Source: a virus
DNA length: 64,000 bases
IMG/VR virus record: IMGVR_UViG_3300027881_000007
Coordinates: 32,001-96,000 of that record
Reading direction: 5' to 3' (one strand)
A program made the translations under genes and the position numbers. The notes below the pieces were generated by a model. The model worked only from the letters and a program-made list of their open reading frames with translations. It did no database searches and was not told the origin of the DNA. This document shows, one piece after another, positions 53,527-55,840 of this stretch (position 1 is its first letter; each line of letters begins with the position of its first letter).

Positions 53527-55227
53527 AGTGAACCAATGTTTAGTAAAAACCCAAATGAAACAAGTGAACCAAAGGAGAGGAGGCACAAACCCGATTAACC
53601 TCAGTGAACCAATTAGTTGGAGAAACCCAGTTTCAAAAAGTGAACCAATGCGGATAACAAAACCTAAAGGTGAGAAGTGAACCAATGTGATTAATAAACC
53701 CAATAGGAGGGTAGTGAACCAGATGCTTCAAGAATCTAATGGAACCTAGTGAACCAATATCTAGAAGTCCACCAATCGTTGTAAAGTGAACCATTTGGAA
53801 AGAGTATCCCATCTCACCCCAGTGTACCACGTGGTATAAGCACAACCAATCAGTCTAGTGAACCACAATGGTGGAGAAAACCACAACATAGTTAGTGAAC
53901 CAAACCTATGATAAAAACCCGCCGGATCAAAGTGAACCACAAGCCTGCAGTAAACCTCCGGAATGGAGTGAACCAGCGAAGCTCAGCAATCCTATATTTC
54001 TGAGTGGACCACAATGGTACAGAAACCCAAGATGTAACAAGTGTAAAAAACCAATCGGTGCAGGGCACCTCAGAGTGTACCAATCCGAAAAATTATGTGA
54101 ACCAATAGTCTAGAGAAGAACCAGTCTTATAGAGTGAACCAGACAACGACACTAATTCATTGTTGAGGAGTGAACCAATAGGAAATAGATAACCTGTTGT
54201 TGAAAGTGAACCAAACGTGTCCAAGAAAACCTTCCTTTCTTAGTGAACCACCGTGATTTAGGACACCTTAGGATCCAAAGTGAACCAGTAAAAAGCTAGT
54301 CACCCAGAGGGGTGGAGTGAACCTACGTTGGTTAGAAATCCAGTACATGACAGTGAACCAATTAGTGTAAGAACAACCAAGAACAAACAGTGAACCATCT
54401 CGCCAGAGTAATCCAATTGCGCGGAGTGAACCAATCTAAGGAAGAAACCCAGTTTTGAACAGTGAACCAATGCTATCCAGTAAACCTGTGCGGAGGAAGT
54501 GAACCTGTTGAAGGAAGCGACCCTTGATGACCAAGTGAACCGAGACGAGATAGATAACCTACGATATTGAGTGAACCCACCAGGGCTAGAAACCCTAGAA
54601 AGCATAAGTGAACCATTCCCCTGCAGTACTCCATCCTTGCCGAGTGAACCGAACCGAAGTAGAACTCCCACAAAATGAAGTGAACCCGTTAGCCTCAGTA
54701 GACCAGAATCAATGAGTGAACCTAAGGAGAGTAGAAACCTTCATGTCTAAGTGAACCAATTTGCGAGAGTAACCCATTCCCCTTCAGTGAACCAACCCGG
54801 GGTAGAAACCCGACAAAGTCAAAGTGAACCGTGAGGCTTGAGATAACCACCTCCTGTAAGTGAACTATTAATGAAACAGAAAACCAATCAAGGTCAGTGA
54901 ACCAATAGAAGAAATGAAAATCAGATAGCACAAGTGAACCGTAAAATGTCATAAACCCGAAATATTTGAGTGAACCAGTCCTATGAAGCAACCGAGCATC
55001 GCTAGTGAACCAAGTTACGTAGTTAACCAAATTGCCGAGTGTACCATATTGGTCAACCAACCCAGACAGAATAAGTGAACCTGGTATGGATAAATAATCT
55101 AAGACGATAAGTGAACCAGGACATCGAAGAAAAACCACGAAAACTCAGTGGACCAAGATCGGATAGAAATCCAATCGTGAGTAGTGAACCATTTTGTGCT
55201 AGAAAAACCCGGAAGTCAAAGTGAACC
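53527..55227 (+). repeat. TIGR array segment 1 (about 48 edge repeats, dual-spacer units of about 36 nt)
   Basis: AGTGAACC every 34-40 nt (mostly 36-37), with a central AG-N3-5-CC loop repeat (AGAAACCC, AGTAATCC etc.) and two variable ~10-nt segments. Confidence 0.92.
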
Positions 55228-55242
55228 ATCAAGGAGGTCTAA

Positions 55243-55518
55243 ATGAGCGAGATTGAATTAGGGCGAAAGGTAAGGGATACGGTTTCTGGATTTGAAGGAA
55301 TTGCTGTTTGTCGTCACATTTATCTAAATGGTTGTGCAAGACTTAGCATTCAAGCACCCATTGATAAAGAGGGAAAATTGCCAGAGGTTGTCACCTTCGA
55401 CGAACCGCAACTTGAAGTCATTGAAGAAGAGACAGGAATCGAAAAGTCAAAAGATGAAGGACCTGGCGGACCAATGCCCTATACGCCAACATCGCGTCAT
55501 GAACCTAAAAGTAAATAA
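55243..55518 (+). CDS. Small SH3/KOW-like protein embedded in the TIGR array
   Basis: AAGGAGG RBS; IELGRKVRDTVSGFEGIAVCRHIYLNGCARLSIQ; its stop codon overlaps the next edge repeat. Confidence 0.8.
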   Translation: MSEIELGRKVRDTVSGFEGIAVCRHIYLNGCARLSIQAPIDKEGKLPEVVTFDEPQLEVIEEETGIEKSKDEGPGGPMPYTPTSRHEPKSK

Positions 55519-55840
55519 GTGAACCCCAGTATATCAGAAAACCAATACAAGCGAGTGAACCAGGGGGTTTAGAAAACCGGCAAGAAAAAGTGAACCGTTA
55601 TCTAATAGACACCCAAGTGTCGAAAGTGAACCATTAAAGAAACGCGTGTAACCAATTCTTCGGAGTTGAGTCCTTACCGGCACGCAGAGTGAACCAGGGT
55701 TTTTTAGTAATCCGTTAGAAATAAGTGAACCAGGGTTCTACAGTAATCCACCAGTAACGAGTGAACCATTAACCAGAAGAAATCAAAAATAAAAAGTGAA
55801 CCAGAAAGAAGCTAAAAACCCCAAAATCGGAAAGTGAACC
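55518..55840 (+). repeat. TIGR array segment 2 (9 edge repeats)
   Basis: AGTGAACC at 55518, 55554, 55589, 55625, 55688, 55724, 55760, 55795, 55833. Confidence 0.9.

Follow-up and report, generated by a model that had tools for sequence, protein, structure and literature searches.

The question raised by this locus is why an intact protein-coding gene occupies one slot of a TIGR guide array, and whether it belongs to the TIGR-Tas system or is a passenger within it. The window, by which we mean the whole 64-kb stretch of viral DNA analysed, carries on its plus strand the octamer AGTGAACC every 35-38 nt from 53527 to 55840, as read from the sequence, and a looser loop repeat of the AGAAACC type lies about 18 nt downstream of every copy of this edge repeat. 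Exact GTGAACC occurs at 52 sites in the window, 50 of which fall within 53528-55834 at a spacing of 35-38 nt. Alternating edge and loop repeats, spacers of about 9 nt and units of about 36 nt identify the array as a dual-repeat TIGR array. The locus comprises the following features:

53527-55840, plus strand: TIGR dual-repeat array, upstream of tas and split by the embedded gene
53527-55227, plus strand: array block 1, about 45 slots with edge repeat AGTGAACC, 34-40 nt apiece
54003-54132, plus strand: two irregular longer slots of block 1
55220-55227, plus strand: edge repeat AGTGAACC bounding the gene on its 5' side, the last of block 1
55231-55237, plus strand: Shine-Dalgarno sequence AAGGAGG, 5 nt upstream of the ATG, at the position of spacer A in a normal unit
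55243-55518, plus strand: 91-aa gene of the phrog_16275 family, a 276-nt ORF; predicted barrel (residues 1-64) and flexible tail with a conserved GGP motif
55518-55525, plus strand: edge repeat on the 3' side of the gene, the first of block 2
55518-55840, plus strand: array block 2, 8 units including one 63-nt structured unit (55625-55687)
55833-55840, plus strand: terminal edge repeat, directly before the tas ribosome-binding site
55854-57017, plus strand: tas, 387 aa, Nop-domain, TasA-like, no nuclease domain detected
57046-57081, plus strand: hairpin CCCCGAGA / TCTCGGGG with a T run after it, probably the terminator of the whole unit from array to tas, read directly

The slot that holds the gene is 298 nt long, eight times the length of a normal slot, and it is no multiple of a fixed period, array units measuring 34-40 nt. 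The ATG at 55243 lies 15 nt past the edge repeat at 55220-55227, and the final A of the TAA stop codon (55516-55518) is at the same time base 1 of the edge repeat at 55518-55525; downstream of the gene, regular units of 35-38 nt run to 55833, where tas follows. The original prediction had described this geometry, with an ORF starting 15 nt after the edge repeat at 55220 and a stop codon overlapping the next edge repeat by its last base, and both points proved exact when the coordinates were verified in the sequence. It should be underlined that the word 'inserted', which the prediction also used, refers to a deduced history rather than to an observation. A degenerate edge-like stretch, CATGAACC, found 18 nt before the stop codon, was considered as a clue to the junction and dropped: by our own arithmetic chance alone would give about 1.2 such 6-of-8 matches in 276 nt, and its codons (His-Glu-Pro) align with the tail of the family.

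To a reading of the ORF as a chance open frame within a non-repeat gap of the array, its small size lends some colour, and nothing else does. The predicted protein matches phrog_16275 with an E-value of 8e-18 (residues 1-82 on profile positions 5-86 of 88), and 29 homologues were retrieved (E 1e-50 to 4e-11) whose identity ranges from 92% down to about 45%. Their alignment has 17 invariant columns and the conserved motifs GDxVxDxVSGFxG, LxGCxR and TFDEPQL, with GGP in the tail. An exhaustive profile search extended the family to 7,092 cluster representatives at E <= 1e-3; it is mostly viral, the ESM Atlas clusters being 88-97% viral. Because the match to phrog_16275 is full-length and the homologues number in the thousands, the ORF is real and the chance reading is refuted, with a residual probability that we regard as negligible; an optimal Shine-Dalgarno sequence and an intact ORF of equal length in a related contig (L086, see below) point the same way. 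Neither Pfam (E <= 1), NCBIfam, a PDB sequence search nor the ESM Atlas gave a named family for the 91-aa protein. The embedded gene is present as a single copy in its own genome, a 113-kb fragment of a large uncultured phage, and judged by its sequence it is a genuine, intact phage gene of the large, uncharacterised family phrog_16275. Among the best-scoring of the 7,092 representatives (P0030-P0177), most are tandem duplications of the barrel of about 155-185 aa with two matched stretches, and these carry the GGP tail after the second copy only.

With regard to the fold, the original prediction that the protein looks like a small SH3/KOW-like beta-barrel is backed by an AlphaFold2 model, which shows a five-stranded barrel over residues 1-64 at a mean pLDDT of 70 and a low-confidence tail. 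Foldseek gave weak matches only (the KOW region of eS4, HspQ, NdhS and nitrile hydratase beta, E 0.006-0.05), with HspQ (5ycq) ranking second at E 0.01. A structure search independent of Foldseek placed the KOW domains of Spt5 (Z 8.7) and NusG (Z 7.8) on top, closely followed by NdhS, eS4, R67 DHFR and Tudor domains. Calibration of this search showed that Z values of 7-9 are the typical best score for small barrels and establish no family, so SH3/KOW-like is used here as a description of the fold only. At the level of sequence, the KOW profile (PF00467) was unmatched, and Pfam at E <= 1 assigned the window protein to no family. The sole recurrent weak Pfam signal in the family is YccV-like (PF08755), seen in 10 of 148 family representatives with a best E of 8e-5, near the 22.8-bit cut-off; the window protein itself has no such match, and a YccV search of its own genome found none, although the control genomes also yielded no loci. 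Our best guess for the activity of the protein is that it serves as a small adaptor which binds nucleic acid or a protein of the host and acts independently of Tas.

The gene that follows the array encodes a Tas protein: it has a Nop domain, adjoins the array and is related to Tas proteins of solved structure, its profile (the protein plus 43 homologues) matching PDB 9mty at E 3e-25 and TasH (21kl) at E 1e-18. The protein also matches phrog_4285 (E 1e-26) and, weakly, the helix-hairpin-helix family Transposase_20. It is classed as TasA-like because Pfam at E <= 1 shows no nuclease family (HNH or RuvC) in a protein that carries about 90 aa extra compared with most relatives. At 387 aa the window Tas exceeds the length of most of its relatives (283-330 aa), and only the closest of them (P0178-P0184, 46-96% identical, 353-405 aa) come near it. 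The hairpin at 57046-57081 was passed over by the terminator scan because its loop exceeds 8 nt.

The history of the slot can be read from two sets of relatives. The closer one, L086, is a 2.7-kb metagenome contig with the same arrangement as the window. Its slot is exactly 298 nt, its left junction equals that of the window up to the ATG except for one base, and its stop codon likewise overlaps the next edge repeat. The encoded protein is 92% identical to the window protein, and the gene block is 96% identical at the nucleotide level over 307 nt, while tas with the downstream DNA is 94% identical. The two gene copies differ by 7 non-synonymous and 3 synonymous codons, too few to demonstrate purifying selection in this lineage. 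The units surrounding the gene are less constant: about nine flanking units in the window are without counterpart in L086 (window 54859-55840 against L086 1-700), the unit with spacer B AATACAAGC has changed sides, preceding the gene in L086 and following it immediately in the window, and between gene and tas L086 has a block of 4 units where the window has one of 8. Whole-unit turnover of the array is thus fast, in DNA whose flanking genes are 94-96% identical.

The more distant relative is represented by three records (L005-L007), one of them a complete 277-kb genome with terminal repeats, in which Tas is 83% identical and both sides of the locus are syntenic. The orthologous array of this phage has about nine ordinary units where the window has the gene, and several units are common to both arrays and equally ordered, among them the one that precedes the gene in the window and the 63-nt one that follows it. 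A profile search found no member of the phrog_16275 family in these records, the complete 277-kb genome included; the same profile, run as a control on the window's own genome, gave E 2e-40. It follows that the lineage of the window and L086 gained the gene or that the other cleanly lost it, the event being bounded by edge repeats either way.

The same comparisons bear on irregular parts of the array. The 63-nt unit at 55625-55687 would form an outer GCGUG/CACGC stem enclosing an inner hairpin, and an oversized unit of 59-63 nt near the tas end is kept in three phages (window 55625-55687, L086 521-579, L005 9888-9944). The inner hairpin differs in sequence between the window and L005 with its pairing preserved, and in L086 the oversized structured unit lies immediately 3' of the embedded gene. 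In block 1, the irregular stretch at 54038-54140 is made up, in order, of an expanded edge AGTGTAAAAAACC, GGTGCAGGGCACC and a half unit; it is 82.5% identical to L005/L006 8821-8920, though ordinary spacers mostly differ, and its fold energy was not better than that of shuffled sequences.

For its suggestion of an accessory factor, the original prediction named co-occurrence with TIGR arrays and tas genes as a check. We examined 80 viral loci encoding a member of the phrog_16275 family, with up to 10 kb of flank per side, using tblastn for Tas relatives and a periodic-array detector that recovers the arrays of the window and of L005-L007. Within 10 kb, all 80 were free of Tas relatives and of TIGR-like arrays. 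Scans of viral contigs with the next-closest homologues, P0002 (82%), P0003 (68%) and P0004 (63%), and with P0179 returned more distant loci only, so that a deeper link to arrays within this clade is conceivable. In the opposite direction, 102 loci with Tas relatives (80 viral and 22 prokaryotic) were searched, and no family member was found within 6 kb of Tas at any of the 80 viral or the 22 prokaryotic loci; L086 served as positive control (E 3.5e-40). The family thus lacks the recurrence across lineages that marks tasParB as a TIGR-Tas accessory (0/80 and 0/102), and on this count the accessory suggestion failed. The neighbours of family members are heterogeneous on both sides (exonuclease, RecT, methyltransferase, terminase, HNH and repressor genes), and in cultured phages it is found as an unremarkable small ORF, as in the Rhodobacter phage RcBaka, where it is gp60, near the start of an early operon and next after an HTH gene.

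The array detector raised three repeat signals near family members, none of which is a TIGR array; they include a 12-nt coding repeat in L059 and, in L073 (5232-5598), a CRISPR-like array with a 66-nt period and a repeat of about 36 nt, 4.4 kb from the family gene. The real arrays at the Tas loci examined are interrupted solely by tas or by short non-coding gaps. Small array blocks that seemed to surround other genes in L152, L159, L177, L185/L195 and L194 were rejected as chance matches with one mismatch in GC-rich coding DNA, and the gaps in L147 and L140 turned out to be non-coding or the end of the array. Co-folding of the 91-aa protein with Tas, both supplied as alignments, gave a score of 0.00, which speaks neither for nor against binding. 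Taken at the level of gene neighbourhoods, the family appears to have no tie to TIGR-Tas, and a dedicated accessory role is unsupported.

The reading that we favour, with somewhat better than even confidence, is that the gene is lineage-specific cargo that fills one array slot and shares its transcript with array and tas, a passenger rather than a component of TIGR-Tas. Cargo captured like a cassette was the other alternative offered by the original prediction, and it fits what was found: the gene is specific to one lineage and bounded by intact edge repeats, it forms a fixed 298-nt block amid the turnover of units, and it is missing from the whole genome of the syntenic relative. Recombination at the short edge repeats probably brought the gene in and can take it out again, just as it adds and removes guide units; the alternative to such an entry is growth of the array on both sides of the gene.

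Survival of the gene in two diverged arrays could instead reflect selection for a function tied to the locus. One rival reading makes the protein a dedicated accessory of this TIGR-TasA system. Such a protein would bind TasA or the tigRNA, aid processing or array expansion, or supply an effector function to a Tas that lacks a nuclease. It would sit, as this gene does, in the same apparent operon and between guide units, and be kept in relatives whose arrays otherwise differ by many units; the modelled KOW/SH3-like fold is compatible with RNA or protein binding, and tasParB, which is operonised with tasA with arrays in between, offers a precedent (PMC12045711). We nevertheless consider it improbable, roughly a one-in-ten matter: co-occurrence is missing in both directions, the protein belongs to a huge general phage family with varied neighbours, the syntenic relative has an orthologous array and Tas without the gene, and TasA systems are described as processing guides and repressing transcription in E. 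coli partner-free (PMC12045711; 10.64898/2026.09.09.750476). Another rival reading sees in the protein a free-standing mimic of the NusG C-terminal KOW domain modulating Rho or transcription-translation coupling. Long untranslated arrays are prone to Rho termination, as is known from CRISPR arrays, and with 2.3 kb of untranslated array transcript open to such termination, the position within the array would be adaptive. That Spt5 and NusG KOW head the structural matches of the model, and that the RcBaka homologue stands at the start of an early operon, would suit this proposal. We hold it to be very unlikely, given that the sequence leaves the Pfam KOW model unmatched, that Tudor, NdhS and HspQ score nearly as high in a Z range usual for small barrels, that the conserved surface motif (FDEPQL) is acidic, and that the one weak Pfam signal to recur in the family is of the YccV-like type rather than KOW.

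A further rival has the gene not inserted into an array at all: it would first have stood beside tas or between two arrays, and guide units would have accumulated later on both sides by duplication and recombination. Arrays flanking tas itself are common (L138, L151, L153, L157, L177, L180), the block between gene and tas is short and variable, and gene and tas alike have a Shine-Dalgarno sequence directly after an edge repeat. What weighs on the other side is that the unit upstream of the gene (e) and the 63-nt unit downstream of it (g) occur in the same order in L005, where the gene is absent; this suggests either a continuous array older than the gene or a clean loss of the gene there, and three genomes cannot separate these two histories. 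We regard later accumulation as unlikely, though as less so than the accessory role.

As to how the cargo would be expressed, gene, array and tas all run in the same direction, an edge repeat immediately precedes the ribosome-binding site of the gene and likewise that of tas, and neither a sigma-70-like promoter nor an intrinsic terminator was predicted on the plus strand from the start of the array to the tas stop codon. Because of the shared direction and the lack of a predicted promoter or terminator in between, the gene is probably transcribed as part of the pre-tigRNA/tas transcript. Promoters of large phages are often not sigma-70-like, so an internal promoter for the gene is possible. 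[quoted passage not shown] Since these ends fall within the edge repeats, maturation of the two flanking tigRNAs would free an RNA of about 300 nt in which a short leader carrying the ribosome-binding site is followed by the ORF and the stop codon. Intact edge repeats on either side would at the same time keep the neighbouring guides processable, and this would explain the clean borders of the gene.

A bolder reading is that slots serve to carry and express protein cargo, the gene being transcribed solely as part of the pre-tigRNA and its mRNA excised in a Tas-dependent way, so that synthesis of the protein would be coupled to the activity of the guide system. In its stronger version the KOW-like protein would feed back, for example by shielding the untranslated array transcript from termination or by binding TasA. 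To this reading we give only a small chance, about one in eight.

A search for spacer targets in the window's own genome gave one exact hit. Both 9-nt spacers of the unit at 54715-54749, TAAGGAGAG and TCATGTCTA, have their exact counterparts there at 8626-8652, at the start of a minus-strand gene (8348-8648), with a 9-bp gap between the spacer matches. Their order and gap lie outside the geometry derived from published cut sites (PMC12045711), and under that geometry no spacer target was found in the window's own genome. This one exact self-hit, of non-canonical geometry, is to be read against the 38 of 2,000 shuffled spacer pairings that also give an exact hit.

TIGR-Tas was described only in 2025, and the growth, shrinkage and processing of its arrays are still to be explained (PMC12045711). 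The locus is a natural test case, being a 298-nt foreign block whose edges fall exactly at edge repeats, intact in two phages whose arrays differ by about 10 units and missing from a third, syntenic phage. As judged by comparison of these arrays, it shows that exchange at edge repeats moves whole slots, even one eight times as long as usual. If the processing of tigRNAs frees the mRNA as well, arrays would be a route for expressing cargo genes, and a simple design principle for multiplexed guide-plus-protein constructs would follow; if not, the locus is no more than a curious placement of a small gene that is common in phages.

Compared with known systems, the locus is closest to dual-repeat TIGR-TasA (Faure et al. 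2025, Science, PMC12045711; Xu et al. 2026, bioRxiv 10.64898/2026.09.09.750476), with which it shares alternating edge and loop repeats, short spacers, units of about 36 nt, an adjacent Nop-domain Tas in which Pfam detects no nuclease family, a phage host and an array abutting the start of tas. In the layouts given in the text of these two sources, arrays lie upstream or downstream of tas, flank it or lie inside it, and sub-arrays are separated by intergenic DNA, whereas here a protein-coding gene unrelated to Tas occupies one slot. The searched text of PMC12045711 and 10.64898/2026.09.09.750476 contains no unrelated gene bounded by edge repeats, and a full-text literature search found no published description of such a gene inside a TIGR array. 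TasA is portrayed there as otherwise without clear associations with other proteins, the ParB-like partner aside. Like tasParB, the embedded gene is a second gene in an apparent operon with tasA, and TIGR arrays sometimes lie between those two as well (PMC12045711); unlike it, the embedded gene does not recur with tas and has no Pfam ParB signal. Other members of phrog_16275, RcBaka gp60 among them, match over their full length and have the same motifs and GGP tail, but those examined stand in ordinary rows of genes, whereas the window gene stands in a guide array. With morons and repeat-flanked cassettes the gene has in common that it is small and self-contained, has its own ribosome-binding site, is patchy among close relatives and is flanked on both sides by short direct repeats that permit gain and loss. 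Classic morons, however, bring their own promoter and terminator and integron cassettes an attC site and an integrase, all of which the embedded gene appears to lack, and its flanking repeats, unlike theirs, are functional guide-RNA repeats. Box C/D snoRNAs are co-transcribed with protein-coding host genes or in polycistronic clusters. They are related to tigRNAs (PMC12045711), and the likeness would lie in guide RNAs and a protein message arising from one processed precursor, although here the setting is a prokaryotic virus without introns and the processing is deduced.
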